Positions 10,225 to 47,417 of a DNA stretch of 51,527 bases are shown piece after piece (the first letter of the stretch is position 1; each line of letters starts with the position of its first letter). This DNA is from a virus (lineage: Duplodnaviria; Heunggongvirae; Uroviricota; Caudoviricetes). Below the pieces are notes generated by a model that had not been told where the DNA came from, made no database searches, and saw only the letters and a program-made list of their open reading frames with translations. The stretch covers positions 1-51,527 of the IMG/VR virus record IMGVR_UViG_3300031998_000026, one strand, 5' to 3'. The translations under genes were made by a program, and so were the position numbers.

Positions 10225-11649
10225 ATGTTCGAGACCTTCACAGCCGCCCAGTACCGGGCGCTGGACCTCGACGCGTTCGAGGCACGTAAGCAGGAGGTAA
10301 TGGGCCTCCTGAACTCCGAGGAGCTGCCCGAGGGCGTCACCGACGAGATGCTCTACGCAGAGGCAGACCTCATCGAGGCCGACGCGGAGCGCCGCTCCAA
10401 GGCCAACAAGCTGTTCAACACCAAGGTGGCCGCGGTGGCCGCAGGCGCCGGCAACGTCGTCGCCACCAGCGAGCCCGAGGCCCGCGAGGACGCCAAGCCC
10501 TCGTTCCAGGCACGCAGCCGCGAGGCTGGCGAGTCCTACACCGACACGGTCGAGTACCGCGAGGCCCTCGCCAACCACATCGCCCGCAAGGCCCCGATGC
10601 CCGGCAACGTGATCGCCAAGGCCATCCAGAGCCGCGCGAACACCCCCGTGACCCTCAACGAGGGCTTCACCAACATGACCGACCCCACGTTCTCCAACAC
10701 CTACAGCACCCTCATCGTCATGCCCTCCACCCTCTCCGAAGAGGTGCAGAAGGAGGTCCGCGAGACGTCCGTGCTGTTCCCCAAGGTGAACGTGACCAAC
10801 TACCAGGGCCAGCTCGCGGTGTCCGAGTACGACCTGCAGGTGACCGGCAGCTGGATCGGCGACAAGGAAGTCTCGCCCTACCAGTACGACTACGACCCCG
10901 AGGTGTTCACCTGGGGCGCCTACCAGTTCGAGGCACGCTTCGCGCGCTCATTCCTGGCACAGGCCCTCATGTCCGACACCTACATCAGGCAGCTCGCGCC
11001 CGCGCTCGCAGAGTGCTACGCGAACGCCATGGACCAGGCCGTGTACGACGGCTCCGGCATCGGCCAGCCGCGCGGCATCGTGACCGACCTGCGCCTGCTC
11101 GGCTCCGACGGCCTCGGCATCGACTCCACGCTCGCTGACTTCTACACCCAGCGCATCGGCACCGGCAAGGGCCGCGCCCTCGTCATCAACGTGAACGAGG
11201 ACCAGATCGACGACTGGAAGTTCTGGAGCACCATCCTCTACAACACCAAGTTCAACCGCTACTACAGGGGCAAGGGCGAGCTCATCATCGCCGACGGCAC
11301 CTGGGGCAACCACGTCAACGTGCTGCACGACGACAACAACCGCCCCATAGCCCTCATGAACCCCCTGGCAGAGGAGCAGAGCCTCACGCTGCGCGGCGTC
11401 GGCCCCGTGGACACGCTGCCCAACGGCATCATGAAGTCCTTCGACGACGCCGAGGTCGGCGACGTGATCGGCATCTACGGCAACCTCAAGAACTACACGA
11501 TGAACGTCCAGCCCGGCATGCCCCTCACCACGACCAGCTGGGACGACCACGAGATCAACCTCCACAAGACCAAGGTGCTCACCGCCATGGACGGACGCGT
11601 CTCCAACCCGTTCGGCTGGGTCATCCTCAAGAAGGGACCGTCGGCCTAA
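10225..11649 (+). CDS. major capsid protein (HK97 fold, with N-terminal delta domain)
   Basis: Follows protease; EYREALANHI, LIVMPSTLSEEV, DQAVYDGSGIGQPRGI, IGIYGNLKNY, MDGRVSNP; extreme GC3 bias. Confidence 0.92.
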   Translation: MFETFTAAQYRALDLDAFEARKQEVMGLLNSEELPEGVTDEMLYAEADLIEADAERRSKANKLFNTKVAAVAAGAGNVVATSEPEAREDAKPSFQARSREAGESYTDTVEYREALANHIARKAPMPGNVIAKAIQSRANTPVTLNEGFTNMTDPTFSNTYSTLIVMPSTLSEEVQKEVRETSVLFPKVNVTNYQGQLAVSEYDLQVTGSWIGDKEVSPYQYDYDPEVFTWGAYQFEARFARSFLAQALMSDTYIRQLAPALAECYANAMDQAVYDGSGIGQPRGIVTDLRLLGSDGLGIDSTLADFYTQRIGTGKGRALVINVNEDQIDDWKFWSTILYNTKFNRYYRGKGELIIADGTWGNHVNVLHDDNNRPIALMNPLAEEQSLTLRGVGPVDTLPNGIMKSFDDAEVGDVIGIYGNLKNYTMNVQPGMPLTTTSWDDHEINLHKTKVLTAMDGRVSNPFGWVILKKGPSA

Positions 11650-11927
11650 TGGGTACCAACGTCTACCAGGGTCGCACGACCGTATCCGAGCTGCGTGACC
11701 TCATCCGCAAGCTCGGCGGCACGCCCAAGGGCAACACCAAGGCCCAACTGCAGGACGAGCTCGAGGCCATCGTGTCCGCTGGCGGCGGTGGTGGCTCCGT
11801 CAGCCCGGCAGAGATCAGGGCAGCCGTCGAGGCAGTGCTCGACGAGAAGCTCCCCGCCGCGATAGCCGATGCCATCGAGACTGGCGGGCTCACCGACGAG
11901 GAAGTCGACGACCTGTTCGAGGGCTAG
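11649..11927 (+). CDS. small head-associated protein (decoration/fibre anchor candidate)
   Basis: Coupled to capsid (TAATG); ends GGLTDEEVDDLFEG, a motif also ending several genes at 38.5-44.6 kb. Confidence 0.7.
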   Translation: MGTNVYQGRTTVSELRDLIRKLGGTPKGNTKAQLQDELEAIVSAGGGGGSVSPAEIRAAVEAVLDEKLPAAIADAIETGGLTDEEVDDLFEG

Positions 11928-11930
11928 CCG

Positions 11931-14878: not shown

Positions 14879-15077
14879 GGACAGGCTCCCCTACACGTCG
14901 ATAGGCAACTCGGCCCTCGAGATGGGACTCTCCATGGCCGACCTCGACGAGATCCCGTGGGGCGAGCTGGTGCTGATGCTGCAGGCACGCGCCCAGTCAT
15001 ACAAGAGGGACGACGAGGTCGAGGAGTCCTCGACTGAGCAGGTGTTCGCGTTCTTCGGAGCGTCGTCCAAGAAATAG
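14829..15077 (+). CDS. tail assembly chaperone extension (gpT-like), probably reached by frameshift; start coordinate approximate
   Basis: Frame open 14784-15077 encodes ...RDRLPYTSIGNSALEMGLSMADLDEIPWGELVLML...; no SD-backed start; it is +1 relative to gpG. Confidence 0.6.
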   Translation, partial: FDPEPLPPEKPARKRDRDRLPYTSIGNSALEMGLSMADLDEIPWGELVLMLQARAQSYKRDDEVEESSTEQVFAFFGASSKK

Positions 15078-15086
15078 GAGGTCTCA

Positions 15087-18000
15087 ATGGCCGAGTCCTA
15101 TCGCGGACTTACGATACGCATCGGTGGCGACACCTCCAGCCTAGTAAAGGCACTACGTGCGCCAAATCAGGCGATTTCCCAAACGCAGGCAGAGATCAGG
15201 AAGCTGGGACAGGCCCTGAAGCTGGATCCCGGCAACGTGCAGGTCATAAGCACCCAGATGGGCTACATGGCTAACCAGGCCACGAACGTGTCCATGAAGC
15301 TCGCCGAGCTCAAGCGCGCGCAGGAGCAGATAGGCAAGCTGAAGTACACCGCCGACGACGGTTCGGTGCAGACGGTGCGCGAGATGGCGAGAGCGACGGA
15401 GGAGTACGGCGGGGCCGTCTCCAACGTGAGCGAGAAGCTCGCGTCCAACAGGACGGAGCTGAGCAAGCTCACTGTACGCCTCGCAGAGGCCCACAACAAC
15501 ATGACCAACCTCACTAGGACGGCAGCGTCTACCGAGAGGACGAAGATCGGGGACGCGTTCAACCTCGCGGCCGGGATAACCTCCGTAGACGAGCTGACGA
15601 AGAAGTACAGCCAGGAACTGCCTAACGGCATGAAGCGCTCCGAGGAGCAGGTAAGGCAGATAATCTCCGAGATAGAGAAGATGCGTGACGCCATAGGCTT
15701 CAAGGATGGCACTGTCAACGTTGATGCTATCGTGCAGTCACTGAGGGATCTCCCCGAGGGCATCAGTATCTCATCTGCGAAACTGAGTTCGTTCTCCGAA
15801 AAGCTCGCAAAGTTCAACGAGAAGCACCACGACGCGTTCAATCAAGCGAAAAGTGACGTTGAGGCGCTGACGCAGAAGCAGGAGGAGCTGCAGAGCAAGG
15901 TCGAAGAGGATAAGGAAGGCATTAACAACCGCGTCACCGAAGCCCAGCTCGAGGGAGAGCGGCTCATAAACGAGGCAGTCGAGGAGGGCAAGAGACTCGT
16001 CGAGGACGCCACGCAGGCCACCAAGGACAGGGCTGCCGCGACGAAGGCCGTCGAGGAGGCGCAGAGGCGTCTCAACGAGGCTGAGGCGAACCTCGAAACT
16101 GCGAAGGGCGAGGAGGATGCAGCCTCGGAGATGGTCGCAGGCGTAGAGAGGGTCAAGGCAGGCCTCGAGAGCCTTTCCGACGACGATAGCATGGGGAAGC
16201 TCGTCGAGATCGCCACAAGGGAGTTCGACGGCTTCGTCGACCACGTAGCAGAGTCGAAGAAGGAGCTGCTCGACGCAGTCAACTTCAACAATGCGTTCGA
16301 CTTCGACGCCGACGAGTCCGTGAAGGAGGCAGGCAGGGTCAGACAAGCCGTCATCGACGCCTACGACGAGATCCACGAGAGGTACGACTCAATAGAGGAC
16401 CAGCGCCAAAGGCTGTTCGATAGTGCGCAGGAGGCACGCAAGAGCGGAGATCAGGCTCTCTTCGAGAAGCTGTTGAGTGAGTCTGGCAAGTTTGACCCAA
16501 CGGAGCTGTTCTTCGAGGATCGCAAGGCGCTAATCAATGCATACTCCGTGGTTGCCGACGCATCGACGCGATCTGCTGAGATACAAGTCGAAAACATCGA
16601 GCGTGTCAAGAAGGCATATGAGCAGGTCTATATGCTCGGCGGCGAGAACCCGGACATGACCCGCACGTCGATCGACAACGAGATTTCGGCGTCACAGAAC
16701 TTGCTCGACGAATACAAGGCGAAATACAAGGACACTCTCGCAGCCCTTAGGAGTCTGCGCACAGAGTATCTTGAGGATGGTGATGACGAGTCCGCTGCGG
16801 TTGCGTCCAGACTAATCAGCGATCTAACGAAGCAGAGGGATGCCACTGTCAATGCCATAAAGGCACAGATATCAAGGCTCAAGACCGAGAAGAAGGCGTT
16901 CGACGACATGTTGAGCGTCACAGACAAGTATGAAGCTGCCACTCCGGTCGAGGTCTACGACGAGATACAGCAGAAGCTGCAGGACACCAAGGCCCTGCGC
17001 GATGCCGAGAAGAGGAGCGTCGACGAGACGACAGCGAGGCTCAAGGCCGAGGGAAAGAGCCAGCAGGAGGTAACGGAGGCCGTCGCAGACGGCGTCGACA
17101 AGGTCAAGGAGTTCGACGCAAGGATAAAGGATCTCAAGAGCGACCTTTCTGCGGTAAGCGGCGGAAGGGGCGCGAACCTGAAGGGCGCGTTCACCGAGGC
17201 ATACGAGAAGCAGCACTCGAACGACGAGGCCCGCGAGTCCGCAAGGGCAAAGGTGGCCGAGGAACAGGCAGAGAACATAAAGCAGGCAGAGCAGGAGCTC
17301 GACGAAGCGCGCGAGCAACACTCCAAGGCGCACCAGAGCAGGCTCAAGGCGGAGGAGGACCTGGAGAACGCGCGCGCTGAGGCTGCAATGAAGGCCAAGG
17401 CCGCAGAGGGGGACAGTGCCGGCACCGTTGAGGACGCAAAGGCGCAGGCGGAGAAGATGCGAGCCGATGCGACCGAGAATGCGTCCAAGATGGTTCAGGA
17501 CGCCATGCAGGCGCAGGACGACAGCGTACTCAATCTGATACAAGACCAGATTGAGTACGAGCAGACCACGGAGAGCCTCAACGCGGCCCAAGCCACCTTG
17601 GCAGACACCTTGGATGACCTCGCGAAGCTCGGCGGCAAGGTCGGCGTCCTGTCCGGCGAGATGTTCAAGAACGCCGAGGGCAACACCAACGTGGCGCACA
17701 TGGACGAGATTCTTCGCTCGATAGCGGAGAACCTCGGCATCAGCGGCAATGAGATCGACGAGTTCGTCGCGAAGACACAAGGTCTCGTCGACGGGTTCAA
17801 CGATGCGAGCACGGAACAGGAGAAGCTCCTGAAGGTGACCAGGTACCAAGACTTGGTCAGCGAGATCATGAAGAGTGAGGCGGCGGTCAAGAGCCTTGCC
17901 GAGAAGATGTCCGGCATGAATGTGCCCTCTGAGCTTATGCGCGGGATGTACGAGCTTGTCGAGGATACGAAGACCCTCGACGTGGCATACAGAGCGCTGA

Positions 18001-21000
18001 CATCTACGGGTTCGTCCCTAAGCCAGGCATACGACGGAGACTCAAGCAACGTGGAGGCCGCGACGCAGGCCATGAACGCGTATGTTGCCGCAGAGGCGGT
18101 AGCTGCGGAGAAGGCCGAACTGCTCGATAAGGAGCTGTCATCGTTCGACTTCCAGGAGATAGACGGGATAACCGACCACACCAAGTCCGCGACGTTGCAG
18201 CTCATGGAAGCGTCGAAGGCTGCGGTCGAGGCAAGGCAGAGATATGACGCCCTGATGGGCGAGTTCAATGCCAATGAGGAGAAGATTAACCAGCTTAAGA
18301 ATGAGCCGGCACACATCTCCAGTACTGATGCCGACGCAAAGAAGTTCGAGGCTGCCGAGAGGGAGCGTCTCGAAGCAGTCAAGGCGCTTACAAAGGCGAA
18401 CGAGGAGCTTGAATCGAAGATAAGGCTTGCTAGCGAGGCGGAGCGCGAGGCAAATAAGAACCGTGACGATGCCAAGAAACGCGAGGAGTACGAGAATGCT
18501 GTGGCAGGCGTAGCTCAATGGCGAACGGAGATGAAGAAGGCGTCAGAGGCCGCTCGCGAGCTGTTCGTCAAGCGCTCGCTGGCAGAGACGTTCGGCGACA
18601 CAAGCTCCATAGACAGGCTGCAGGAGAGGGTGGGCTCGCTTACCTCAAGCGCCAACGCCTTCAAGACCGCCTTCGAGTTCGACCCCAAGAACGTCGACAT
18701 GGCGACCGCGAGCATGGCACGGCTGCAGGAGGCAGAGGACGCTGCTGCAAAGAGGATGGCAGAGCTCGGGACCAAGGCATCGGCCATGGATACGTCGAGA
18801 ATCGACGAGCTGCGTGAGAAGTACGGTTCCATCAGGGATGCAGTGGACAAGACGCGCGAGGCCGTCGAAGGCATCCCCGACGTCGCGTCAAAGCTCAGCG
18901 CCGTGCAGACACTCGACAACGTGCCAAGCTACCTCGATGGCATCAGGGAGAAACTCCTTGACCCGACCGCGACATTCAAGGACTACGAGATAGAGTTCCT
19001 GCCCAAGAGCATAGCGGACGCACATAGGAGCCTGTCAGACCTGCGCGAGGTCGGCGTCGACACGCTCAGGGACCTTGCCGACGCAGAGAAGGCCCTGAAG
19101 TTCGAGCAGATGCAGCAGGAGATAGCCGCCGCCCGCATGGAGCTCGAGAAGCTCATGCGGCAGGAGCACGAGATAGTGGTGCGCCTGTCCCTGCAGGGCG
19201 AGTTCGGCGACACCACCAAGATAACCGACGCCCTCGACGGCGCGATGCAGTCCGCCATGGGGCGCGTGGGCACGTTCGACAACGCGCTCAAGTTCGACAC
19301 CAAGAACGTAGACCTGCTCGACGCCAGGATGAGGGCGGTCACCGACGCCATGAATCTGGGTGCCAGGGAGGCGGACGCGCTCAGGGCGGCGATTGCGAAG
19401 ATCGACGCGTCCGACGTCGAGGAGATGCGCACCGCTTACGGGTCCACCTCCAATGCGGTCAGGTCGACCACCGAGGAGGTCGAGACACTCATCTCAAAGG
19501 TAGCCGAGGCACAGGCCGAGATGGACGCCGAGGAGGAGGGCACTAAGGCCTACGACGAGGCAAGGGAGAAGGTCGAGAGGCTGCGCGAGGCACTGGACGC
19601 CGCCGAGCAGTCCAGTGCCAAGGCGGCCAAGTACGAGCAGTGGGAGCGATACAACGAGCAGCTCGCCAAGGTGTCGGCTGCCATGCACGGCCTAAACGAG
19701 GACGTGCGCGAGGTCGCCGAGCGCAACGTCGAGGCGTTCTCCGCGAACTACTCCGAGGGCATGTTCGGCGACGTGGACGAGCAAGTGGCATCGTTCGACG
19801 CCGCCATACAGAAGGCCGAGGAGAGGTACCGCAAGTACACGGACGCGCTCGCCAAGGAGCCCCACAACAAGCTGTTCAAGGACGAGCAGGCAAAGGCGCT
19901 CGCCGAGGCGGTAGACCTCACCAACAGCAAGGTCGCCTACCTCAAGCAGACGATGTCGCAGTTCGACCAATCGAAGATATCGGCCCTGAAGAGCCAGTAC
20001 GGCTCCTTCGGAAAGGCCGTCGACGACTCCAAGCTCAAGCTCAAGGCCACCGAGGCGGAGATAGAGACCCTGAGGCAGAAGGTGGCCGAGTTCGCAGCGA
20101 AGAACGGCAAGGATGCCGCATGGGTGCGCCAGTTCACCGACGCCAAGGCCGAGATAAAGAGCATCCCGCCGGAGCTGGCTCCCGTGCGCGCCCGCATCGT
20201 CGAGCTGTTCGACGTGCAGGGCGGCCAGCAGCTCGAGCTCGCGATAGCGTCCGTGTGCTCGCGGCTCGAGGAGATGGGAGACGAGGCCAACGTGGCTCAG
20301 GCCGCGCTCAGGAAGGCCTTGGAGGGCGACGGCACGTCGTTCATTGACAGCGCCGCGTTCACGCAGGCCGCGCAGGAGATGGGGCAGTGGGCGCGTCAAG
20401 CGGGCCAGCACATAGTCGACTCCGCAAACACCATAGACTCCGCGTACCGAGACATGCGCAAGACGGTCAACGGCACCGAGGAGGAGTTCGAGAGCATCCG
20501 CCAAGCGGCGATAGACTTCTCGCAGACCCATGCCGTCTCCGCCGACCAGATGCTGGAGATGGAGGCGCTCGGCGGGCAGCTCGGCGTGGTGGCAAAAGAC
20601 CTTGAGCAGTTCGGAAGGCTTGGCAGCAACATCTCGATTGCCACAGACATCGAAGCCAATGATGCGGCCTTGCAGCTCGGTCAGATGCAGAACATCATGT
20701 CCGACCTCGAGAACATGGATGACCTAGAGCACTTCGGAGACGCACTCGTCAGACTTGGCAACAACGCCGCAGCACAAGAGTCTGCCATCATGAACGTGGC
20801 ACAGCGCATAGCGGCGGTGGGAAACGTGACGAGCATGTCCGCGTCCGAGGTGCTCGGCTGGTCGGCCGCAATCGCAGAGACCGGACAGAGATCCGAATCC
20901 GCGGCGACCGCATTGCAGCGCACGATAACGGGCATAGGCGATGCGGTCAACAAGGGCGGCTCGACACTCAAGAACTTCGCCGCGATAGCGAACATGAGCA

Positions 21001-36227: not shown

Positions 36228-36229
36228 GG

Positions 36230-36248
36230 CGAACGTGTGTGCTATAGT
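36230..36248 (+). promoter_or_regulatory. extended -10 promoter with LexA-type box
   Basis: CGAAC-GTGT-GTGCT 36230-36243 overlapping TG-c-TATAGT 36240-36248. Confidence 0.5.
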
Positions 36249-36270
36249 GGCATGGCACACATGTACGCAC

Positions 36271-36395
36271 CCACCACCCAAGGTGCCGAGAAATGCGGAG
36301 GAGGATTCACTGGCGGATAGGGTAGCTCCCGAAAGGGCGGACACACCCGCCGTCCTTCCGCCACTTCCGCATGGGTGTCGACTATGGGGTGGTGG
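36271..36395 (+). ncRNA. candidate cis-regulatory structured RNA leader of the HNH gene
   Basis: Nested helices CCACCACCC/GGGTGGTGG, ATGCGGAG/TTCCGCAT, TGGCGGA/TCCGCCA enclosing GGG-tagct-CCC and GGCGG-acacac-CCGCC. Confidence 0.55.
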
Positions 36396-36403
36396 TTATC
36401 TTT

Positions 36404-37387: not shown

Positions 37388-38418
37388 ACATCTGTGTTCC
37401 ACATTGGCAGGAAACCCCGGAGGAGATGGAGCCGTTGCTCGACTCCATAAAGGTGCAGCGCGCAGTCGACCTCTCGCAGGTCGGCGTGGTGATAGCGTAC
37501 GACGGGCCTGACGCGTCGGAGCTGCCGCTCGACGAGTGGCGCAGCCGATACCCGTTCGCCATCGAGGACGTGCACCCCGAGAAGGGTGGCGTGTCCCACA
37601 CGCGCAACGCGGCGCTCGACGCGAGCGAGGCCGAGTTCGTCATGTTTGCCGACGCGGACGACTGCCTCATGGACAACAGGGGACTGTTCATCGTGTTCAG
37701 GGAGATGGACGCCGACCCCAACCCGCAGGAGCTCGCGGTCATGGGCGTGTCAGAGAAGGACGCCGGCAAGGGCTTCGACTTCCTCGTGTGCGACTTCGTC
37801 GAGGAGAACAAGCGCCCCGACACCGGCAAGATGGACTACCTGCCACACGTGAACAACATGACCTTCGTGCATTCCCAAGTCGCACGCAGGCAGTGGCTCG
37901 TCGACAACGGCATCCGGTTCAACGACGCGCTCACCGTGCACGAGGACAGCTACTTCGTATGTCTCTGCCGCGAGCTGGTGAAGCCGTACCGTGGCAAGTA
38001 CTGTGCCCACCCGTGGTTCCTGTGGTGCTGGCGCGACGCGAGCGTGTGCCGCCACGACCCTGACTACATACTCAAGACCTACAACAACATGCTCGACTCG
38101 AACGACGCCCTCGTAGACGAGTTCACCAGGCGCATGATGCCGGAGAAGGCGAACTCCTACTGCGTCATGATGGTGTTCGACGCCTACTACTGCATGAACA
38201 AGCCAGAGTGGATAGAGGTGAACCACAAGGACTACCGCGACAGGGTGGAGAGGCGGTTCGCCGAGTACTTCCGCAAGCACGAGTCGAAGTGGGACGCCGT
38301 CTCCCCGCAGGAGCGGGCCGTCATATCGAACGGCGTTCGCCAGCGGTCTGTCGGAGAGGGCATGCTCATGGAGGCGATCACGATAGACGACTGGCTGAAG
38401 CGCATAAAGTCGCTGTAA
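37375..38418 (+). CDS. glycosyltransferase family 2 (GT-A), soluble
   Basis: LDICVPHWQE, GGVSHTRNAALD..AEFVMFADADD, GIRFNDALTVHEDSYF, FLWCWRDASVCR. Confidence 0.85.
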   Translation: MRKLDICVPHWQETPEEMEPLLDSIKVQRAVDLSQVGVVIAYDGPDASELPLDEWRSRYPFAIEDVHPEKGGVSHTRNAALDASEAEFVMFADADDCLMDNRGLFIVFREMDADPNPQELAVMGVSEKDAGKGFDFLVCDFVEENKRPDTGKMDYLPHVNNMTFVHSQVARRQWLVDNGIRFNDALTVHEDSYFVCLCRELVKPYRGKYCAHPWFLWCWRDASVCRHDPDYILKTYNNMLDSNDALVDEFTRRMMPEKANSYCVMMVFDAYYCMNKPEWIEVNHKDYRDRVERRFAEYFRKHESKWDAVSPQERAVISNGVRQRSVGEGMLMEAITIDDWLKRIKSL

Positions 38419-38420
38419 GA

Positions 38421-38553: not shown

Positions 38554-38772
38554 ATGCCGAAGCTAGTCAGCACGGAAGACCTCAAGGACACGCTCGCCAA
38601 GTACACGGCCAAGGGCGACACGCACTGGGCGCTCAAGGGCGAGATACCGACAGACGAGGAGATAAGGGTCATGGTGGACGTCGCGCTCGACGAGGCCGAC
38701 GTCGTCACGCACCCCGAGGTCTCCGAACTCAGCAGCACCGATATAAGCGACATACTCGCCGAGGCCCAATAG
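38554..38772 (+). CDS. small fibre adaptor-like protein
   Basis: AAGGAG RBS; MPKLVSTEDLKDTLAKY...ELSSTDISDILAEAQ. Confidence 0.65.
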   Translation: MPKLVSTEDLKDTLAKYTAKGDTHWALKGEIPTDEEIRVMVDVALDEADVVTHPEVSELSSTDISDILAEAQ

Positions 38773-38851: not shown

Positions 38852-39817
38852 ATGCCAGACCCCACCATCCGCCACGCAAGCAAGGCAAACCTAATCACCA
38901 TCGTGCAGGGCCTCAAGGCGCTGTACACCAACCAGGACGCGTTCGCCAAGGTAAAGGTCGGCGCGACCACCACGCCAGCATCCGACAAGCAGGACACCTT
39001 CGAGATCGCCGCGGGCGCCAACATCAGCGTGTCCATCGACGGCAAGGTCGTGACCGTCACCGGCGACTACGACGTCGTGACCCAGCTCGCCGACGGCCTC
39101 ATGAGCGCAGCCGACAAGGTCAAGCTCGACGGCATCGAGGACGAGGCCCAGGTCAACGTCATCGAGTCCGTCAAGGTGAACGGCAACACGCTCACCATCG
39201 ACTCCAAGGCCGTCGACGTACTGATAGCCGAGGGCGCCACCAACGGCACCGTCAAGGCCAACGGCGTGGACATCCCCGTGCACGGCCTCGACAACGCCGC
39301 CTACAAGGACGTCGAGACCACCCTCGCCGACGACGGCAGGCTCCCGACCGGCGCCGCGGTCAAGGCGTACGTCGACTCGACGCTCGCATCCGTGTACAAG
39401 CCCGCCGGCTCCTCGGCGTTCTCCTCGCTGCCCACGCCCATCGAGGCCGAGCTCGGCAACGTGTACAACGTGACCGACGCGTTCTTCACCACCTCCGACT
39501 TCGTCGAGGGCGCCGGCAACGAGTACGGCCCCGGCACGAACGTGGTCGTCATCAGCGTCCCAGCGCACTACGCGCCGACCGAGGACACCACCGCCATCGA
39601 GGGCAAGACCTACTACGCCGACGGCTCCGGCACCGAGTTGGACCCCGCACCCGCCGCCGACGCCGACATCACCGGCCTCGACTACTACGAGTACGTCGCC
39701 GAGGCCTTCAAGTTCGACGTGCTGCCCGGCTTCATCGACCTCTCCGCATACGCGCTCACCGCAGACATCGGCGCCCTCACCGCAGCCGAGGTGCAGGAGA
39801 TCCTCGACGAGGCCTAA
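38852..39817 (+). CDS. virion fibre protein (putative)
   Basis: GLMSAADKVKLDGI..AQVNVIESVKVNG, LGNVYNVTD, FKFDVLPGFIDLSAY, ends ALTAAEVQEILDEA; strong GC3 bias. Confidence 0.75.
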   Translation: MPDPTIRHASKANLITIVQGLKALYTNQDAFAKVKVGATTTPASDKQDTFEIAAGANISVSIDGKVVTVTGDYDVVTQLADGLMSAADKVKLDGIEDEAQVNVIESVKVNGNTLTIDSKAVDVLIAEGATNGTVKANGVDIPVHGLDNAAYKDVETTLADDGRLPTGAAVKAYVDSTLASVYKPAGSSAFSSLPTPIEAELGNVYNVTDAFFTTSDFVEGAGNEYGPGTNVVVISVPAHYAPTEDTTAIEGKTYYADGSGTELDPAPAADADITGLDYYEYVAEAFKFDVLPGFIDLSAYALTADIGALTAAEVQEILDEA

Positions 39818-39832: not shown

Positions 39833-41593
39833 ATGCCTGACAACATCGAGAGGGTCACGGAGCACCCTGTCGGTTCGGTGGGCCTTCGCGTCGTCCGCGA
39901 CTGGGTGAAGGGCCTGGTCGCGAACGACGTCAAGGTCATCGAGACCGACTCGGTCCCCGAGAGCCCGGTCGACGACACGCTCTACGTCGTAGTCGACGGC
40001 GATGACGCCACCTTCATGCTCTGCACCGACGGCGTGCTCAGGGAGGTCGGCGCCGGCGTCGAGACGTACGGCGAGCTGGCGGGCAAGCCCGAGGTCGACG
40101 GCAACGAGGTCGTCGCGGGAGACCAGGCGCACGAGTCGCTCGGCCTCGTGGGCACCGACGACTTCGTCACCACCCCGACCGGCAAGACGAGCGGACTCGA
40201 GATCGTGCTCGCGGCCGGGACGCCCGACAGCCCGACCGTCATCACCGAGATAGACGACTCGGCGGCGATGCAGTACAGCACCGTCCACACCAGCTCCAAC
40301 CACTACATCAACAACCAGCTCGACGCGATCAACGCGGCGCTCGCCGGCAAGCTCAACCTCCTGTTCGTCAACGAGCTGCCTGACCCCCCGACGGCCAACA
40401 CGCAGTACTACGTCGCGACCGAGAGCGACGGCGTGTACGACATCTGGATCGTCGACTCCGTCGGCACCATGCGAAGCGCGGGGACGACCGAGATGGACCT
40501 CGGCGGGCTCGTGCGCGACACCAGGTCGGTCGCGGGCCACGACCTGAGCGCGAACATAACCGCAGCACAGATGGAGGCGGCGCTGAAGGACGAGCCCGCG
40601 ACGCTCACGCACAAGACCATCGACGCCGACGACAACACGATATCCGACCTCACGACCTCGAACCTCAAGAGCGGCGTGCTGTCCACGGCCGTGTCGTCTG
40701 GCTCCACGAACACCCAACTGTCGACCGCCAAGGCCGTCTACGACTACGCGGTGCCCAAGACCAGCGGCACCAGCAAGATCTACGGCACCAACGGCTCGGG
40801 CGCGGCGAACAACTACTCGCTCGCCACGTCAATCTCGTCGAGCTCCACCGACACGCAGCTGCCGACCGCCAAGGCCGTCTACAGCTACGCGGTGCCGAAG
40901 ACCACCGACGCCAACAAGGTGTACGGATCCTCGAACAATTTCGACCGTTCGACCTCGGTATCTTCCAGCTCGACCGACACGCAGCTGCCGACCGCCAAGG
41001 CCGTGTACGGCTTCGCCGTGGCGAAGACCACGAACACGAACCGCGTGTACGGCACCGACGGCAGCGGTAACGCGCTGCAGTACACAGCCACGGGCACGTT
41101 CAACAGCACGGCGAGCAACCAGCTGCTCACGAGGGCAGGGGCCTACAACCTGTACAACGGCGTCGTGAGCGGCAACTACGACACGGTGTTCTGCGGCAAC
41201 TTCATGAGGACCACGGAGCAGTCCGTCTCCGCCAACACGTCCACCGCCATCAGTTGCACCGGCAGTGACGTCTACCGCTCCTCGCTGGTACAGCTCAACT
41301 CCAACGGCTGCAAGATCCTCGTGGCCGGCACGTACCTGTTCCAGGTTGTCGCCCGCCTGTCCGACACTAGCGGGGCCACGCGCCACTGGTACCTCGGCGC
41401 CGGTACCTCGATGACCGACGACGAGAACGGCGGCTCGTGGCTCTACACGTACGAGCGCCACAAGGGCGAGGGGTCGAACCTGCTGTACTGCACGGCGGGT
41501 CTGATAATCAAGCCGCAGGTGTACATCGCAACGAACAGCGGCACGCTCAAGTACGCCAAGATGCGCGTGTTCAAGCTCAACGACAAGCTGTAG
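39833..41593 (+). CDS. Ser/Thr-rich fibre protein with internal repeats and beta-sandwich (C1q/BclA-like) tip, paralog 1
   Basis: Repeats SSSSTDTQLPTAKAVY(S/D/G)(Y/F)AVxKT...K(V/I)YG; C-terminal GCKILVAGTYLFQV domain. Confidence 0.7.
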   Translation: MPDNIERVTEHPVGSVGLRVVRDWVKGLVANDVKVIETDSVPESPVDDTLYVVVDGDDATFMLCTDGVLREVGAGVETYGELAGKPEVDGNEVVAGDQAHESLGLVGTDDFVTTPTGKTSGLEIVLAAGTPDSPTVITEIDDSAAMQYSTVHTSSNHYINNQLDAINAALAGKLNLLFVNELPDPPTANTQYYVATESDGVYDIWIVDSVGTMRSAGTTEMDLGGLVRDTRSVAGHDLSANITAAQMEAALKDEPATLTHKTIDADDNTISDLTTSNLKSGVLSTAVSSGSTNTQLSTAKAVYDYAVPKTSGTSKIYGTNGSGAANNYSLATSISSSSTDTQLPTAKAVYSYAVPKTTDANKVYGSSNNFDRSTSVSSSSTDTQLPTAKAVYGFAVAKTTNTNRVYGTDGSGNALQYTATGTFNSTASNQLLTRAGAYNLYNGVVSGNYDTVFCGNFMRTTEQSVSANTSTAISCTGSDVYRSSLVQLNSNGCKILVAGTYLFQVVARLSDTSGATRHWYLGAGTSMTDDENGGSWLYTYERHKGEGSNLLYCTAGLIIKPQVYIATNSGTLKYAKMRVFKLNDKL

Positions 41594-41604
41594 GAGGGGC
41601 TGAC

Positions 41605-43377
41605 ATGAGGATAATCAGGGACGGCCACACCATCTACAACAGCATCGACAACACGGGCTCGAGCAACGAGGCCGCGCTTGGCGCCCAGTATGCAAAGGGC
41701 AGGCTCGACACGCTTGACGGCCGCTTTAGCGGATACTACACCAAGAGCGAGGTCCACGACCTGCTCACGGGGGTGGCGGCGACGAACATCGTCCCGACGG
41801 TGCCCGCGCTGCCAGAGCCCAACACCTACTACCTCGTCGGCAACGACGGCGAGGGGTACGTCCTCCACTACTACGACACGGAGCTCGAGCACGCCATCGT
41901 CGGGTCCTACGAGCTCAACCTCACTACCGCGATACCGCAGCGCGAAGAGCTCCCGACCGCGGGCGTCGGCTACGGCGGCAAGGTGTTCCAGTACACGGGC
42001 ACCGGCCAGGCGCAGTACGTGCGCGGCAAGTGGTACGTCTGCCAGCAGCAGGCGTACTACGGGTGGCTGGGCGACGGCTCGGCCACCACGGTGTACACGC
42101 GCGAGGAGGCGCCCGATGTCGGCGACGTCATCTACGACGGCACCGGCGCCGCGTACTCCCACGAGGTGGCGTCGCTCTCCGGCACGACCATGACCGACTC
42201 CGACGGCGGCACGTGGACGCGCAGCTCGGCGGCGGACAAGACCGAGTGGGAGTGGGCAGACCTCGCCGACGGGGCAATCTCGGGCGTGTGGAGCACCGAC
42301 CTCGCCGAGGCCAGGGTGCTCGTGTCCGACGCGGGCGGCAAGGTCGCCGCGTCCGGCGTGAGCACCGAGGAGCTGGGCATGCTGTCCGGCGTGACATCGA
42401 ACATCCAGACGCAGCTCGGCAACATAGAGACCACGAACCTCAAGAGCGGCGTGCTGTCGACCTCGGTCAGCTCGAGCTCAACCGACGCCCAGATCCCGAC
42501 CGCGAGGGCTGTGTACGGCTATGCGGTCCCGAAGACGAGCAGCGCGTCCAAGGTCTACGGCACAAACAGCTCCGGCACGGCCACGAACTACTCGCTCGCC
42601 ACGTCGGTCAGCTCCGACTCCACCGACTCACAGGTGCCGACGGCGAAGGCCACCTACAGCTACGCGGTCGCGAAGACCACCGACGCCAACAAGGTGTACG
42701 GAAGCTCCAACAACTTCGACCGCGCGACGTCTGTCGGCAGCAGCTCGACCGACACGCAGCTGCCGACCGCCAAGGCCATCTACAGCTACGCGGTGCCCAA
42801 GACAACCGGCGGCAGCAAGATATACGGCACCAACAGCTCGGGCGCGGCGCTGAACTACTCCATCAACGACACGTACACCAGCTCCGCAGACAACACGGTG
42901 TTCACCCGCAAGGGCGCGTACAACCTGTACAACGGCGTGTTCAGCGGCAACACCGCCATGGTGTTCGCGGGCAACCTGATGCGCAACTCCTCGCAGTCCG
43001 TCTCCGCCGATACGTCGACGGCCATCAGTCTTACGGCGAGCGACATATACCGCTCTGGGCTCATCCAGCTCGCGAGCAACGGATGCAAGATCCTGGTCAC
43101 GGGGACGTACTGGTTCCGCTTCGTCGGACGCCTGAGCGACACCATCAGCACGTCTCCGACCATAAGGTCATGGTATCTGGGCGGCGGCGTCAACACGATG
43201 CTGGACGACCAGGCCGGTGGGCAGTGGATGTACACGAACAAACGTCACAAGGGCGAGGCCACGCTGCTGCGCTACTGCACGGCGGGCGAGGTCATCAAGC
43301 CGTACGTCTACATCGACGGAAACGCCGGCTCCCTGCAGTACGTGACGATGCAGGTGTTCAAGCTCAACAACAAGTAA
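41605..43377 (+). CDS. Ser/Thr-rich fibre protein, paralog 2
   Basis: GGAGGGG RBS, ATG 41605; RVLVSDAGGKVAASGVSTEEL..LSGVTSNIQTQL; same repeats and tip (GCKILVTGTYWFRF). Confidence 0.7.
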   Translation: MRIIRDGHTIYNSIDNTGSSNEAALGAQYAKGRLDTLDGRFSGYYTKSEVHDLLTGVAATNIVPTVPALPEPNTYYLVGNDGEGYVLHYYDTELEHAIVGSYELNLTTAIPQREELPTAGVGYGGKVFQYTGTGQAQYVRGKWYVCQQQAYYGWLGDGSATTVYTREEAPDVGDVIYDGTGAAYSHEVASLSGTTMTDSDGGTWTRSSAADKTEWEWADLADGAISGVWSTDLAEARVLVSDAGGKVAASGVSTEELGMLSGVTSNIQTQLGNIETTNLKSGVLSTSVSSSSTDAQIPTARAVYGYAVPKTSSASKVYGTNSSGTATNYSLATSVSSDSTDSQVPTAKATYSYAVAKTTDANKVYGSSNNFDRATSVGSSSTDTQLPTAKAIYSYAVPKTTGGSKIYGTNSSGAALNYSINDTYTSSADNTVFTRKGAYNLYNGVFSGNTAMVFAGNLMRNSSQSVSADTSTAISLTASDIYRSGLIQLASNGCKILVTGTYWFRFVGRLSDTISTSPTIRSWYLGGGVNTMLDDQAGGQWMYTNKRHKGEATLLRYCTAGEVIKPYVYIDGNAGSLQYVTMQVFKLNNK

Positions 43378-43389
43378 TCGCCGGGTGAC

Positions 43390-43422
43390 ACGCTGGCGCG
43401 GGATACGGTCCCGCGCCAGCGT
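43390..43422. repeat. perfect 14-bp inverted repeat (no U-tract)
   Basis: ACGCTGGCGCGGGA-tacgg-TCCCGCGCCAGCGT. Confidence 0.8.
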
Positions 43423-43445
43423 CGACGGCACCACGAGAACGGAGA

Positions 43446-43661
43446 ATGGCGATGCCGGCACCATCAATGCGGTTCGCGGACCTCGCGAACATGAAGACGC
43501 TGTTCGCCGGGCTCAGGCTCAAGTACGAGCCGAGGGACGCGGCGATAGTGAAGGACGTCGAGTACGTCCACACGGACGAGAACTACAGCTCGTCCGACAA
43601 GACCAAGCTGGACGGGATAACGAGGATAACCAACGCGGAGCTCGACGAGCTCCTCGTATAG
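43446..43661 (+). CDS. small fibre adaptor-like protein
   Basis: RFADLANMKTLFAGL...VHTDENYSSSDKTKLDGI, ends RITNAELDELLV. Confidence 0.7.
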   Translation: MAMPAPSMRFADLANMKTLFAGLRLKYEPRDAAIVKDVEYVHTDENYSSSDKTKLDGITRITNAELDELLV

Positions 43662-43674
43662 GAGAGTGATGACG

Positions 43675-44595
43675 ATGGCATATCTCGACAACGACGGAGT
43701 GCTGTACCTCTGGGGAAAGATCAAGGCCAAGTTCGCAGACAAGGGCGACGTCGCCTCCAAGAGCAGCACGACCCCGCTCGCGAACGGCACGGCGGCGGTG
43801 GGCTCCGAGACCGCGTACGCCGCGGGCGACCACGTGCACCCGACCGACACCACCAGGGCCGCCGCGGCCGACCTTACCGCACACACCGGAGACGCGGTCG
43901 CGCACGTTACCGCGGCGGAGAGGATCGCGTGGAACGCCAACACCGACAACGAGGGCACCGTGACGCAGGTGTCCGCCGGCATCGGCCTCGACGGCGGCGA
44001 CATCACCACGACCGGCACCGTCAAGGCCAAGCTGAAGAGCGAGACCGCCCACAGCGCGAGCTCCGCCACCCCAAGCAACACCGCCGACAGGCAGTACGCC
44101 GTGGGAGTCGACGCCGACGGGTACCTGTCCGTGAACGTGCCCTGGACCGACGATGACACCACCGACCTCACCCAGATGACGGGCGTGCTCGGCATCGCCA
44201 ACGGCGGCACCGGCGCCTCCACCATAACGGGCATCGTCAAGGGCAACGGCACGGGAGCGATGACCGCCGCGACCGCCAGCGACATCAGCACGCTCCTCGG
44301 CAGCACCGCCGTCGACCGCGCCACCGCCGACGCGAACGGCAACGACATATCGGCCACCTACGCCAAGAAGACCGACATCGCCTCGATGTACGAGTACAAG
44401 GGCAGCGTCGCGAGCGCCGCAGCGCTCCCCGCCTCGGGACAGGAGGTTGGCGACGTCTACAACATCGAGTCCTCCTCGGCGTACGGGGCCGCGGGCGCCA
44501 ACGTGGCGTGGAACGGCACCGCATGGGACAGCCTTGGCGAGATATTCTCCATAACCGCCGTCACCAATGCGGAGCTCGACGCCATCTGCGTGTAG
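43675..44595 (+). CDS. virion fibre protein (putative; alternative starts 43666/43669)
   Basis: MAYLDNDGVLYLWGKIK; YAAGDHVHPTDT; GVLGIANGGTGA; RATADANGNDISATY; YKGSVAS..LP..VGDVYN; ends AVTNAELDAICV. Confidence 0.75.
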   Translation: MAYLDNDGVLYLWGKIKAKFADKGDVASKSSTTPLANGTAAVGSETAYAAGDHVHPTDTTRAAAADLTAHTGDAVAHVTAAERIAWNANTDNEGTVTQVSAGIGLDGGDITTTGTVKAKLKSETAHSASSATPSNTADRQYAVGVDADGYLSVNVPWTDDDTTDLTQMTGVLGIANGGTGASTITGIVKGNGTGAMTAATASDISTLLGSTAVDRATADANGNDISATYAKKTDIASMYEYKGSVASAAALPASGQEVGDVYNIESSSAYGAAGANVAWNGTAWDSLGEIFSITAVTNAELDAICV

Positions 44596-44638
44596 GGAGA
44601 CAAATAGGATTGCGTAAGTTTTGAAAGGCAGGTAGCCG

Positions 44639-44905
44639 ATGGCATATCTCGACAACTCGGGGGTCTCGTACCTCTGGGGCAAGATAAAGGGCGCGTTCGA
44701 GACCAAGGACGCGACCATCGTCAAAGACGCCTCGTACGTTCACACGGACAACAACTACACCACGGCTGAGAAGACGAAGCTGTCCGGGATAGAGACTGGC
44801 GCCGAGGCCAACGTGGTCAAGGGCGTCGACGACACCACGATATCCATTGACGCGAGCGGCATCATAAGCCTCGCCCTTCCGAACCTGGACGGAGCAGGTT
44901 ACTGA
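44639..44905 (+). CDS. small adaptor-like protein upstream of LRR gene
   Basis: MAYLDNSGVSYLWGKIK...VHTDNNYTTAEKTKLSGIETGAEANV...ends SLALPNLDGAGY; TGATG overlap. Confidence 0.75.
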   Translation: MAYLDNSGVSYLWGKIKGAFETKDATIVKDASYVHTDNNYTTAEKTKLSGIETGAEANVVKGVDDTTISIDASGIISLALPNLDGAGY

Positions 44906-46188
44906 TGGGATACGGTATAACGAACGACGCGTACTATCCCGCCATAGCGTCTGCAATCCGCAGCAAGGCTGGCACCACGTCAACGTACAGGCCGTCCGAG
45001 ATGGCATCGGCCATTGCGGCCATAGAGACGGGCATGGACCCAGTCCATGCGATCTTATGCTATGTGCCAAGCGGCTCAATGAGTGGAAGCATGTCATTTG
45101 TGAAATCAAATGCTTTCGCCTACTGCTCAGCCCTCACGACCGTCAACATGCCATCCTGCACGACGGTCGGCGACGGCGCGTTCCAGAACTGCACCTCCAT
45201 TACGACCGTCAGTCTCCCGCTCTGCACGTCAGTCGGCGGCAGCGCGTTCGCATCATGCTCAGCCCTCATGACCGTCAGCTTGCCAAAGTGCACGTCAGTC
45301 GGCAACTACGCGTTCCAGAACTGCACCTCCATTACGACCGTCAACCTCCCGCTCTGCACGTCAGTCGGCAACAGCGCGTTCCAGAGCTGCTCGTCGCTCA
45401 CTACAGCCAGCCTCCCCGCCTGCACGACGGTCGGCAACAGCGCGTTCCAGAGCTGTTTCGCCCTCTCGTCCGTCAGCCTGCCTGCCTGCACGACTGTCGG
45501 CAGCAGCGCGTTCCAGAGCTGCTCAACCCTCGCGTCAATCGACCTCCCCGCGTGCGAGACGGTCGGCGACGCCGCGTTCCAGAACTGCTCAGCCCTCGCG
45601 TCCGTCAGCTTGCCAAAGTGCACGACGGTCGGCAGATACGCGTTCGCATCGTGCTCGTTGCTCGCGTCCGTCAGCTTGCCAAAGTGCACGACGGTCAGCA
45701 GCGGCGCGTTCTATAGCTGCTATTCTCTAGCAACCGTCAGCCTGCCCGTATGCACGACGGTCGGCGACTACGCGTTCTATAGCTGCAGCAGGCTCACGAC
45801 CGTCAACCTCCCGTCCTGCACGTCTGTCGGCGGCTGGGCATTCTCTGGCTGCCCGTCGCTCGCGACCGTCAGCCTCCCGCTCTGCACGTCAGTCGGCGGC
45901 TATGCGTTCTGGAACTGCCCCTCCCTCACGACCGTCAGACTGCAAAAATGCACTGTCATCGGCACTGCTGCGTTCTTACGGGACTACAAGTTCGTCAGCC
46001 TGTACCTCACTTCGGTTTCGAAGGTGACAACGCTACTCAGCAAGGACACATTCAACAGCACGCCCATCGGCGGCTACAGCGCGTCGGCAGGACGGTACGG
46101 CTCCGTCTACGTCCCGGCATCGCTCCTCAACAGCTTCAAGACCGCCACAAACTGGGCGTCGATATCAAGCCGCATAGTAGCCGGATAG
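44905..46188 (+). CDS. BspA-type LRR protein 3 (12 full 22-aa repeats, 45151-45942, plus caps)
   Basis: PxCTxVGxxAFxxCxxLxxVxL tandem array with a 66-bp period. Confidence 0.9.
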   Translation: MGYGITNDAYYPAIASAIRSKAGTTSTYRPSEMASAIAAIETGMDPVHAILCYVPSGSMSGSMSFVKSNAFAYCSALTTVNMPSCTTVGDGAFQNCTSITTVSLPLCTSVGGSAFASCSALMTVSLPKCTSVGNYAFQNCTSITTVNLPLCTSVGNSAFQSCSSLTTASLPACTTVGNSAFQSCFALSSVSLPACTTVGSSAFQSCSTLASIDLPACETVGDAAFQNCSALASVSLPKCTTVGRYAFASCSLLASVSLPKCTTVSSGAFYSCYSLATVSLPVCTTVGDYAFYSCSRLTTVNLPSCTSVGGWAFSGCPSLATVSLPLCTSVGGYAFWNCPSLTTVRLQKCTVIGTAAFLRDYKFVSLYLTSVSKVTTLLSKDTFNSTPIGGYSASAGRYGSVYVPASLLNSFKTATNWASISSRIVAG

Positions 46189-46205
46189 AATGGAGCTGAA
46201 CTATC

Positions 46206-47417
46206 GTGAACGGAATCACCAACGGCGCGCACTACGCGGCGATAGCGTCGGCCATCCGCAGCAAGGCAGGCACGACCAGCACCTACAAGCCGTCCGAGAT
46301 GGCATCGGCCATTGCGGCCATAGAGACGGGCATGGACCCAGTCTATGCGATCGCGACTGTCAAACCAACTGGTTCTATAGGTGGAAGCGCGTCGTTCGTA
46401 AAACCATACGCAGCTTGCGGGAGCAACGAAGTCACCTCTATCAACCTGCCATCCTGCACGACGGTCGGCGACGCCGCGTTCCAGAGCTGCTCGTCGCTCG
46501 CGTCCGTCAGCTTGCCAAAGTGCACGTCAGTCGGCAACTACGCGTTCCAGAACTGCACCTCCATTACGACCGTCAGTCTCCCGCTCTGCACGTCAGTCGG
46601 CAACAGCGCGTTCCAGAGCTGTTTCGCCCTCTCGTCCGTCAGCCTGCCAAAGTGCACGACGGTCGGCGACTACGCGTTCTATAGCTGCAGCAGGCTCACG
46701 ACCGTCAACCTCCCGTCCTGCACGACTGTCGGACGCGAGGCATTCATCTGCTGCAGCTCCATTACGACCGTCAGCCTGCCGGTCTGCACGTCAGTCAGTA
46801 CCTACGCGTTCAGGAGCTGCTCTTCCCTCACGACCGTCAGCTTGCCAAACCTCGCGACGGCTGGATACGGCGCGTTCTACGGCTGCAAGACCCTCAAGTC
46901 AATCAGCCTGCCCGTATGCACGACGGTCAGCGAATACGTGTTCTACAGCTGCTATTCTCTAGCAACCGTCAGCCTGCCCGTATGCACGACGGTCGGAAGC
47001 TACGCGTTCGCCTACTGCTCGTCGCTCGCGTCCATCAGCCTGCCCGCCTGCACGACGGTCTACAGCTTCGCGTTCAAATGGTGCTATTCTCTAGCAACCG
47101 TCAGCCTGCCCTTATGCACGACGGCCGACTGGGACGCGTTCGCCTACTGCTCGTCGCTCGCGTCCATCAGACTGCCCAAGTGCACCTTAATAGGCAGCAG
47201 CGCGTTCAGGTCCTGCTACAGGCTTGTCAGCCTGTACCTCAACTCAGTATCGCGGGTGACTACTTTGTCTGCAAGTGCATTTGCCTCGACTCCAATAGGC
47301 GGCTACAGTGCGTCGGCCGGACGGTTCGGCTCCGTCTACGTCCCGGCATCGCTCCTCAACAGCTTCAAGACCGCCACGAACTGGGCGTCGATATCGACGC
47401 GCATAGTTGCCGGATAG
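46206..47417 (+). CDS. BspA-type LRR protein 4 (11 full 22-aa repeats, 46449-47174, plus caps)
   Basis: Same caps and repeat consensus as 44905; GTG start. Confidence 0.88.
   Translation: MNGITNGAHYAAIASAIRSKAGTTSTYKPSEMASAIAAIETGMDPVYAIATVKPTGSIGGSASFVKPYAACGSNEVTSINLPSCTTVGDAAFQSCSSLASVSLPKCTSVGNYAFQNCTSITTVSLPLCTSVGNSAFQSCFALSSVSLPKCTTVGDYAFYSCSRLTTVNLPSCTTVGREAFICCSSITTVSLPVCTSVSTYAFRSCSSLTTVSLPNLATAGYGAFYGCKTLKSISLPVCTTVSEYVFYSCYSLATVSLPVCTTVGSYAFAYCSSLASISLPACTTVYSFAFKWCYSLATVSLPLCTTADWDAFAYCSSLASIRLPKCTLIGSSAFRSCYRLVSLYLNSVSRVTTLSASAFASTPIGGYSASAGRFGSVYVPASLLNSFKTATNWASISTRIVAG

Follow-up and report, generated by a model that had tools for sequence, protein, structure and literature searches.

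In podophages of Klebsiella (KP32, K11, and KP34), the first receptor-binding protein (RBP1) has a branching domain, and binding of the conserved N-terminal docking peptide of RBP2 to it has been demonstrated (PMC13352976, PMC6872550). The long tail fiber of T4 is made up of the products of the consecutive genes 34-35-36-37 (PMC5537660, PMC3004832), and the gp37 fiber of the T2/S16 type bears a separately encoded tip adhesin, gp38 (PMC6957217, PMC12892980). Here we describe the fiber/adhesin gene block of a gut phage of the Caudoviricetes, IMG/VR record IMGVR_UViG_3300031998_000026, as found in the first 51.5 kb of that record (51,527 nucleotides, henceforth the window). In this block, short peptide motifs at the C termini of proteins (A or B) are matched by motifs at the N termini of the products of the genes that follow (A' or B'). 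About 150 phage and prophage loci show A/A' or B/B' pairing, nearly without exception, and we consider it reasonably likely that the paired ends dock end to end and that the fibers are assembled from separate segments. The original prediction, made on the window by itself, had cast these ends as cognate docking modules comparable to those of polyketide synthases and nonribosomal peptide synthetases (PKS/NRPS), in which short C- and N-terminal helices of successive subunits are thought to set subunit order and fall into compatibility classes.

A six-frame search located all thirteen peptides quoted in that prediction, each in one match only, on the + strand and at the terminus of a real gene; they had been listed there by the starts of their genes rather than by their own positions. 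Motif A supplies the last coding residues before the stop codon in five proteins, at 11886-11924 (gene 11649-11927, which begins on the final base of the stop codon of the capsid gene), 38725-38769 (the 72-aa gene 38554-38772), 39773-39814 (gene 38852-39817), 43623-43658 (gene 43446-43661), and 44557-44592 (gene 43675-44595). Its short form, ..[IL][TS]N.E[IL]D.[IL]xx-stop, is predicted to be a capped C-terminal helix, and the alignment from a set of 70 viral loci reads x-[IL]-[TS]-N-x-[ED]-[IL]-[DE]-x-[IL], with 2-3 further residues before the stop codon. Motif A' is a predicted amphipathic N-terminal helix with the short form M..YLD..GL..LW.KIK, aligned in the same 70 loci as M-x(1-4)-[YF]-L-[DN]-x-x-G-[LV]-x-x-[LF]-W-x-K-[IL]-K, and the quoted A' peptides are residues 3-23 of genes 38554, 38852, 39833, 43446, 43675, and 44639. 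In the second pair, B is a C-terminal ..[DN][GA]x...[YFW]-stop, usually with a one-base overlap between its stop codon and the start of the next gene, and B' is a two-helix module, ..IA.AIR.K.G....Y.PSEM, at the gene start. The two B ends of the window, LALPVANEVGY-stop (28786-28818) and LALPNLDGAGY-stop (44870-44902), each run into a gene for a BspA-type leucine-rich repeat (LRR) protein (28821-29849 and 44905-46188; Pfam LRR_5, E values of 6e-39 and 5e-64), the A of TGATG overlapping the ATG of the LRR gene.

In the whole 116-kb genome, a hidden Markov model (HMM) of the A' core matched only genes 43675 (E = 1e-12) and 44639 (E = 1e-11), and one of B' matched only the three LRR N termini (E = 1e-24 to 1e-27), which excludes chance for the strong pairs. 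The weaker copies of A, in genes 11649, 38554, and 38852, gave no score with the narrow HMM of the type II motif. They are kept at the extreme C termini of their own families as (L/T)GGLT..E[VI]..[IL].., and this conservation identifies them as genuine motifs, of another subtype. The start of gene 38554-38772 is an ATG within a longer open reading frame (ORF), which the ORF list shows only from an upstream GTG; the presence of the gene in three syntenic relatives (L171-L173) shows that it is real.

The pairing of A with A' was examined in the 70 viral loci, which had been chosen solely for resembling gene 43675 in its C-terminal domain. The A' pattern occurs there 59 times (36 distinct sequences), always in the first 30 residues of an ORF, and all 36 distinct starts lie 9-49 nucleotides downstream of an ORF ending in A. 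An HMM scan of 1.5 Mb (8462 ORFs) placed A at most 10 residues from the C terminus in 41 of 46 distinct matches and A' in the first 35 residues in 51 of 52. Among distinct pairs of adjacent genes, 39 had both motifs, 9 had A only, 14 had A' only, and 2424 had neither, giving an odds ratio of 750 and a Fisher p of 4e-65, which is a guide only and overstates independence, the loci being mutually related. The apparently lone cases are ends of loci or partners in which the motif falls below the threshold. The suggestion that motifs go together in neighboring genes, originally drawn from one virus, thus holds strongly across other phages. One locus (L159) displays five A/A' junctions in succession, and prophages with the same grammar of ends were found in contigs labeled Lactonifactor, Anaerobutyricum, Lachnospiraceae, Ruthenibacterium, Clostridium, Faecalibacillus, and Prevotella. 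When A' and the fiber repeat that comes after it were combined in one profile, 5336 protein clusters at 50% identity were retrieved from a library of 1.84 billion proteins; among the best 150 of these, matches covering the first profile position begin at residues 1-7, with the sole exception of P0111. Other queries were less productive: a locus search with gene 38852 as the single query gave one locus only, the first 200 aa of gene 39833 retrieved no locus, and a profile of three stalk paralogs (described below) found no confirmed relative among viral contigs.

These data also bear on an alternative in which the two ends would be independent terminal caps, A capping the C terminus and A' serving as an N-terminal helix for trimerization or attachment. 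They would not bind each other, attachment would take place elsewhere, e.g., at the baseplate, and the adjacency would reflect tandem fiber genes and module exchange at gene borders. Exchange of this kind is seen: near-identical shafts in three loci (L003, L007, and L020) are each followed by a different A'-headed tip, with the swap falling precisely at the junction, which both docking ends and such caps would allow. We nevertheless regard this alternative as unlikely, since the proteins ending in A are mutually unrelated and not confined to shafts. Apart from shafts of 160-520 aa, they comprise small proteins of 52-90 aa, one protein of 289 aa, and, in three loci (L071, L155, and L156), tail-tip-like proteins of 379-443 aa encoded after Dit-like genes, and these non-shaft proteins have an A end if, and only if, the gene after them begins with A'. 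Further, terminal tips have A' and lack A, and in the only covalent fusion seen, P0111, where A' is fused behind another domain, no A stands ahead of that A'.

For B/B', 80 loci were selected by a profile of the three LRR N termini. B' is N terminal in nearly all cases, with two tandem copies in a few proteins, and the protein encoded 5' of the B' gene, anything from 42 to 1195 aa long, has the end [DN][GA]x...[YFW]-stop, in most cases with the one-base overlap. The last residue is aromatic in 43 of 59 distinct upstream proteins versus 98 of 1048 in the background (p = 1e-35), and the B pattern occurs in 36 ORFs of these loci, 35 of which immediately precede a B' gene. The independent recurrence of a second pair, proposed from the LALP..GY ends before LRR genes, is therefore confirmed, both in the window and in other loci.

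The compactness of the B junctions, most of which overlap as TGATG or TAATG, raises the alternative of a signal at the nucleotide level, i.e., an element for translation coupling or regulation, or else a recombination linker, of which the peptides would be by-products. In its favor, and against the docking of B ends, the EV of ..DGTEVSY-stop is simply the codon reading of GAGGTG, the Shine-Dalgarno sequence of the next gene. However, the B pattern with its terminal aromatic residue persists in 18 of 24 junctions whose Shine-Dalgarno sequence is intergenic, that of the A junctions sits in the spacer, and the two B junctions of the window are only 53% identical as DNA. Differences among distinct junctions at codon positions 1/2/3 amount to 0.35/0.21/0.69 for A and 0.40/0.22/0.61 for A', with third positions being 2-3 times more divergent than second ones, and the junction loci range from 28 to 62% GC. 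These codon-position differences and the wide GC range establish that the constraint acts on the peptide, not on the DNA, and leave a nucleotide signal as an extremely improbable explanation of the motifs. As separate observations, the last codons of both stalk genes of the window encode the Shine-Dalgarno sequences of the LRR genes (28804-28823 and 44888-44907; GAGGTGG and GGAGCAGG), and both junctions read GY-stop-MGY, with Tyr codons flanking TGA. A ribosomal hop across this element, fusing stalk and head, is conceivable at low odds.

The homologs of gene 38852 (1495 proteins) conserve both termini, the subtypes of which co-vary, so that five types (I to V) with matched N and C termini can be told apart. 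Homologs ending in LGGLT.AE[VI].EIL.EA-stop or ..IIAAL-stop start with ..RF[VL][ST]KA....I..[GA][LM]K..YTNQ[DN]A. Other matched sets from the same search combine MAYNEKHLAKLADLKALG with ATD.EV.EML.EVYGE-stop, ..G[VL]..[IV][RK][DN]W[VA] with MTVAEI.AIL..-stop, and the YLD..LW starts with ITNAEID.I.. ends. Further matched pairs are provided by seven loci (L073, L023, L043, L049, L054, L159, and L160). Ends in ..[LM]F are paired with A' motifs lacking Trp in 26 of 27 cases, and 39 ends without the F precede A' motifs with Trp; this co-variation could reflect a size swap at a point of contact or shared descent. Taken together, the alignments point to a limited number of compatibility types, and several of these occur side by side in this virus. 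Co-variation of N- and C-terminal subtypes within single proteins is also what independent caps would give, as is the finding that the junctions of one phage are usually of one type. A candidate code distinguishing first from second junctions (LL with YLW and IV with YFW) was dropped, as it was inconsistent across four loci (L033, L037, L052, and L071).

Greater discrimination comes from small proteins that combine ends of different types. Gene 43446 (71 aa) joins a type I A' (43473-43514; over 30 residues, its N terminus shares 43% identity with the N terminus of gene 38852) via one fiber repeat to a type II A, which scores 14.6 bits with the A HMM, and gene 44639 (88 aa, 44639-44905) joins a type II A' (44645-44689) to the B end at 44870-44902. 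An A' start and a B end are combined in other phages too (L108:3432-4001 and L048:5963-6169). Such proteins of 71-88 aa, which contain little besides a plug and a socket of unlike types, argue against independent caps and, judging from their composition, would be hard to explain except as adaptors.

Structure predictions agree with helical ends. An AlphaFold2 (AF2) model of the LRR protein of gene 44905 (predicted local distance difference test [pLDDT] of 92) has B' as a helix at residues 8-22, a loop, and a helix at 30-39, followed by a disordered stretch (40-55) and the solenoid; its best fold matches in the PDB are the BspA-type structures 4fs7 and 4gt6 (Foldseek probability of 1.0). The AF2 monomer of gene 43675, which is poor overall (pLDDT of 54) and from which only a β domain and the secondary structure of the ends were taken, places the A' helix at residues 6-21, the β domain at 240-287 (pLDDT of >90), and the A helix at 298-305. 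Searches of the PDB with sequences or profiles of three alignments (A1, A2, and A4) and two whole proteins returned nothing significant, and the B' profile matched no solved PDB chain.

For the pair 43675/44639, three copies of the last 100 aa of the former and three of the latter, each with its alignment, were predicted as a trimer-on-trimer complex, cognate trimers having been proposed as the object of such a prediction. The ipSAE was 0.58 versus 0.00 for the best of three controls, with 100% contact agreement between runs and a partner pLDDT of at least 76. Of 80 solved complexes, 58 reach the mark applied, as do 2 of 110 mismatched pairs, and scores at 0.60 or under account for 7 of the 80 solved complexes and for both of the passing mismatches. 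The result is hence graded as weak support, a grade that independent caps would also lead one to expect, and the score describes the whole complex, without an interface, rather than the contact of A with A'.

Based on these observations, we propose that the virus bears segmented, partly branched host-binding fibers that would be put together after translation. The socket of each segment would be its last 10-15 residues (A or B), and the plug would be the first 20-40 residues of the next gene's product (A' or B'). A/A' would couple trimer to trimer through a short capped C-terminal helix and a 16-residue amphipathic N-terminal helix. B/B' would mount LRR heads on a stalk, with B consisting of the three aromatic-ended C-terminal peptides of the trimeric stalk and the B' hairpin lying on a flexible tether that carries a probably monomeric LRR head. 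The small proteins would convert one plug/socket type into another. The contacts, their stoichiometry, and the following three wirings are what we infer from the ends.

In the first putative chain, 38554 would connect to 38852 and this in turn to 39833. In the first link, 38554, an N-terminal helix (38563-38604) is conserved and the end is a type I A; its syntenic homologs in L171-L173 carry the same two ends. The shaft 38852 (321 aa) has a type I A' (38873-38917) and an A of type I/V, and the tip, 39833-41593 (586 aa), has a type V A' (GSVGLRVVRDWVK, 39869-39910). The pairing of the last two is repeated in another locus (L054), where ..AEV.AILEA-stop is followed by ..GL..VKNWV, and L171-L173 mirror the chain as a whole, with a small protein ending in ..GGLSDDEMNDLLGAL or similar, a type I shaft, and a type I tip. 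The C-terminal 320 aa of the tip are paralogous to the product of gene 41602-43377. That gene holds a second copy of the 320-aa head, 66% identical to the one in 39833, with no recognizable N-terminal plug and no socket-bearing gene before it. In L171, a 115-kb relative, a reverse transcriptase (RVT_1; L171:8650-9864) lies 3' of the type I tip gene and possibly belongs to a diversity-generating retroelement directed at the tip. A fiber repeat in the shaft, ..GLMSAADKVKLDGIE.. (39050-39250; residues 67-132 of gene 38852), matches PDB chain 9j1k_M (E = 0.003), a 99-residue chain present in three copies under the title "CCA-adding enzyme", which looks like a mislabeled phage fiber chain.

In the second chain, 38554 would connect to the converter 43446, then to the shaft 43675, the converter 44639, and the LRR head of either 44905 or 46206. 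The shaft (306 aa) comprises a type II A' (43681-43725), a small β domain (..AWNGTAWD..), and a type II A. The head of 44905 has B' at residues 8-39 (90 bits with the B' HMM), a disordered tether, and the solenoid; that of 46206-47417 is 64% identical to it and has the same B' module (81 bits). No gene ending in B precedes 46206, and its product therefore probably competes for, or shares, the B ends of 44639. The small β domain in front of A also turns up (L161 and the phage records BK063680 and NC_134205) in a virus assigned to the Methanomassiliicoccales and a contig of the Methanomethylophilaceae, so that the module spans the divide between bacteria and archaea.

In the third wiring, the anchor/stalk 27943-28821 (292 aa), one of three paralogs, would hold through its B end the LRR head of 28821-29849 (B' at about 28821-28940, 92 bits). 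Another of the paralogs, 31831-33618, is a covalent fusion of stalk and LRR, recognized by BLAST and Pfam, with neither B nor B'. It had been considered as a Rosetta-stone case with B and B' in cis, which the B' HMM, giving no match there, ruled out. The stalk is instead joined to the LRR via a Gly-rich linker, and the phage thus has both split and fused solutions.

Plugs exceed sockets at two places, with two LRR heads for the B end of 44639 and both 38852 and 43446 for the socket of 38554, which fits branching or mixed occupancy. Several points weigh against this end-to-end docking. Some 20 nucleotides separate the two halves of a junction, and the loci are related, so that co-variation of the halves could reflect co-inheritance. 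Successive junctions in one phage are usually of one subtype, and an ordering code within a phage is for this reason not evident. A shaft with plug and socket of the same type could polymerize or be skipped, and we see no feature that would enforce order. The first links, 38554 and 43446, and the head 41602 have no socket-bearing gene upstream, and the only complex prediction is the weak one described above. Of the original docking proposal, the matched pairs themselves are sound, as they are real, widespread, locked in position, co-varying, and accompanied by converters, while a fine code for order within a phage was not seen.

The contact could also be real but transient, with the upstream end, or the 71- to 88-aa proteins as a whole, serving as assembly chaperones or templates that nucleate trimerization of the next protein and are absent from the virion. 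Phage fibers often need the products of neighboring chaperone genes, such as T4 gp38/gp57A and the Tfa proteins, and in keeping with this, the small proteins are very short, and the tight translational coupling (gaps of -1 to 20 nucleotides) would favor cotranslational contact. Yet they contain structural fiber repeats (e.g., ..TAEKTKL.GIE.. and ..DGTTI..DG.I..) and are encoded upstream, not downstream, of their partners, and the same end is present on long shafts and tail-tip proteins. We consider a chaperone role quite improbable on this account and retain stable end-to-end docking as the preferred reading.

The copy of A beside the capsid gene had been taken as a hint that part of the array is anchored on the head rather than the tail. 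The protein of gene 11649 (92 aa) has a HeH-like N terminus, a Gly linker, and a C-terminal A of type I-like sequence (GGLTDEEVDDLFEG). In its family, the end ..TGGLTDEE[VI]D.[LI]F.. is conserved, with T78, L81, D83, and F90 being invariant and one member having two copies; it resembles a type I socket and scores only 0.1 bit with the narrow A HMM. The relatives share a conserved gene order, namely, capsid gene, 11649-like gene, HeH protein, and connector, and no A' gene was ever found beside the 11649-like genes in them. The first link of chain 1, 38554, has its conserved N-terminal helix and no socket-bearing gene in front, and a long-range pairing of the 11649 end with this helix is conceivable. 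We find it decidedly doubtful that four or more plug/socket types excluding one another (I, II, V, and B), together with the converters, would wire a branched, many-headed adhesin tree rooted in a type I socket on the capsid side (GGLTDEEVDDLF), with part of the array on the head and not the tail.

Compared with the described systems, the closest likeness is to the anchor-branch arrangement of KP32. As in KP32, a second, separately encoded binding protein would here be mounted via a short conserved N-terminal peptide that is portable, with exchangeable heads behind it and partner genes that are adjacent. A' and B' begin at residues 1-13 in nearly all cases, as such docking peptides would, and by family models their sequences are unrelated to the Klebsiella peptide; no relation to the KP32 system was found by sequence or family model. 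In KP32, the receiver is the internal branching domain of RBP1, whereas here it would be the last 10-15 residues of the preceding protein; Pfam, PHROGs, and NCBIfam detected no internal branching domain of the KP32 type, and the element conserved in the partners, which are otherwise unrelated proteins, is a C-terminal peptide. The chains here also differ in having up to five links (in L159), several types, and type-converting mini-proteins. Further, whereas binding has been demonstrated for KP32, it is here suggested by sequence and one complex prediction.

As in the T4 fiber, several proteins would lie end to end with their genes in the order of the segments, an arrangement that gene order and matched ends appear to fit. 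Unlike in T4, the joints of which are not known to use a reusable peptide pair, the same pair recurs here at every joint and across thousands of protein clusters. The two systems have no motifs or families in common: Pfam gave no hits indicating homology to gp34-gp37, and the only PHROG match was a weak one of gene 38852 to PHROG 677, "baseplate wedge tail fiber protein connector" (E = 0.0014). B/B' recalls gp37/gp38 in that a separate adhesin would be attached by its N-terminal part to the end of a trimeric fiber and in that the adhesin gene follows the fiber gene. The one-base overlap of stop and start and the position of B' and the tether before the LRR conform to that layout, and the likeness is one of layout only; no similarity to gp38 was found. 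Unlike in gp38, a 40-residue two-helix module and a flexible tether here precede a head that is a BspA-type LRR solenoid, and, in further contrast to gp37/gp38, a stalk could take up as many as three heads, of which two alternative ones are encoded. The heads are true BspA-type members of LRR_5 (PF13306), with Pfam E values of 6e-39 to 4e-66 and a right-handed solenoid model; the description of that family covers the repeats and not the phage-specific N-terminal B', the residues of which have no Pfam match. The likeness to PKS/NRPS docking is an analogy of logic only, the partners here being trimeric structural fibers and not enzymes, and none of the end peptides matched a docking family in Pfam even at an E value of 10.

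Regarding novelty, the original prediction knew of no description of these ends as a system. The principle of mounting fiber parts on one another is established elsewhere (PMC13352976, PMC6872550, PMC5537660, PMC6957217), and to that extent the claim was too broad; these particular motif families matched no named family in Pfam (E values of up to 10), NCBIfam, or PHROGs. A literature search with the motif strings returned only frog-skin peptides and no paper with the A/A' or B/B' motifs, and one for BspA in phage fibers gave nothing relevant. We are thus probably dealing with a known principle built here with connector motifs that are absent from the databases and literature searched. If the docking reading is correct, small portable connectors would be common to phages and prophages of Firmicutes and Bacteroidota and to this virus of 62% GC. 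They would furnish a rule for which fiber proteins of uncultured gut phages belong together and in what order, and would make thousands of "hypothetical" small genes annotatable as adaptors. They would also explain the tip swaps falling exactly at these gene borders and offer a natural plug-in point for swapping the host-binding heads of phages in the laboratory, as done with the Klebsiella docking peptide.

The virus itself, whose record comprises 116 kb at ~62% GC, has no close relatives that we could find among deposited phages. The window has a siphovirus-type layout, with the terminase followed by the portal and then the capsid gene (10225-11649; PF05065). Farther downstream are the tape measure (15087-25514), which at 3475 aa implies an unusually long tail, Dit (25518-26252), and a Tal-like protein (26260-27891). 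The fiber/adhesin block spans 20 kb, extends to 47417, and is succeeded by a CBM5/12 protein and the endolysin. BLAST comparisons within the window revealed this block to be a mosaic of paralogous modules: three stalks (27943-28821, 30919-31821, and 31831-33618, the third as a fusion with an LRR head), three stand-alone LRR genes (28821, 44905, and 46206), the C-terminal 320-aa head common to 39833 and 41602, and the end motifs shared by 43446, 43675, and 44639. Just before the tape measure gene, a gpT-like chaperone piece (14922-15077) ends in ..STEQVFAFFGASSKK, a likeness to the loosest socket pattern at the level of a regular expression only. Directly 5' of the first link of chain 1, a cassette of glycosyltransferase- and UDP-glucose-dehydrogenase-like genes (34561-38418) is kept in L171-L173, accompanied in L172 and L173 by a NUMOD4/HNH endonuclease, and the sugar enzymes that it encodes may act on these fibers.

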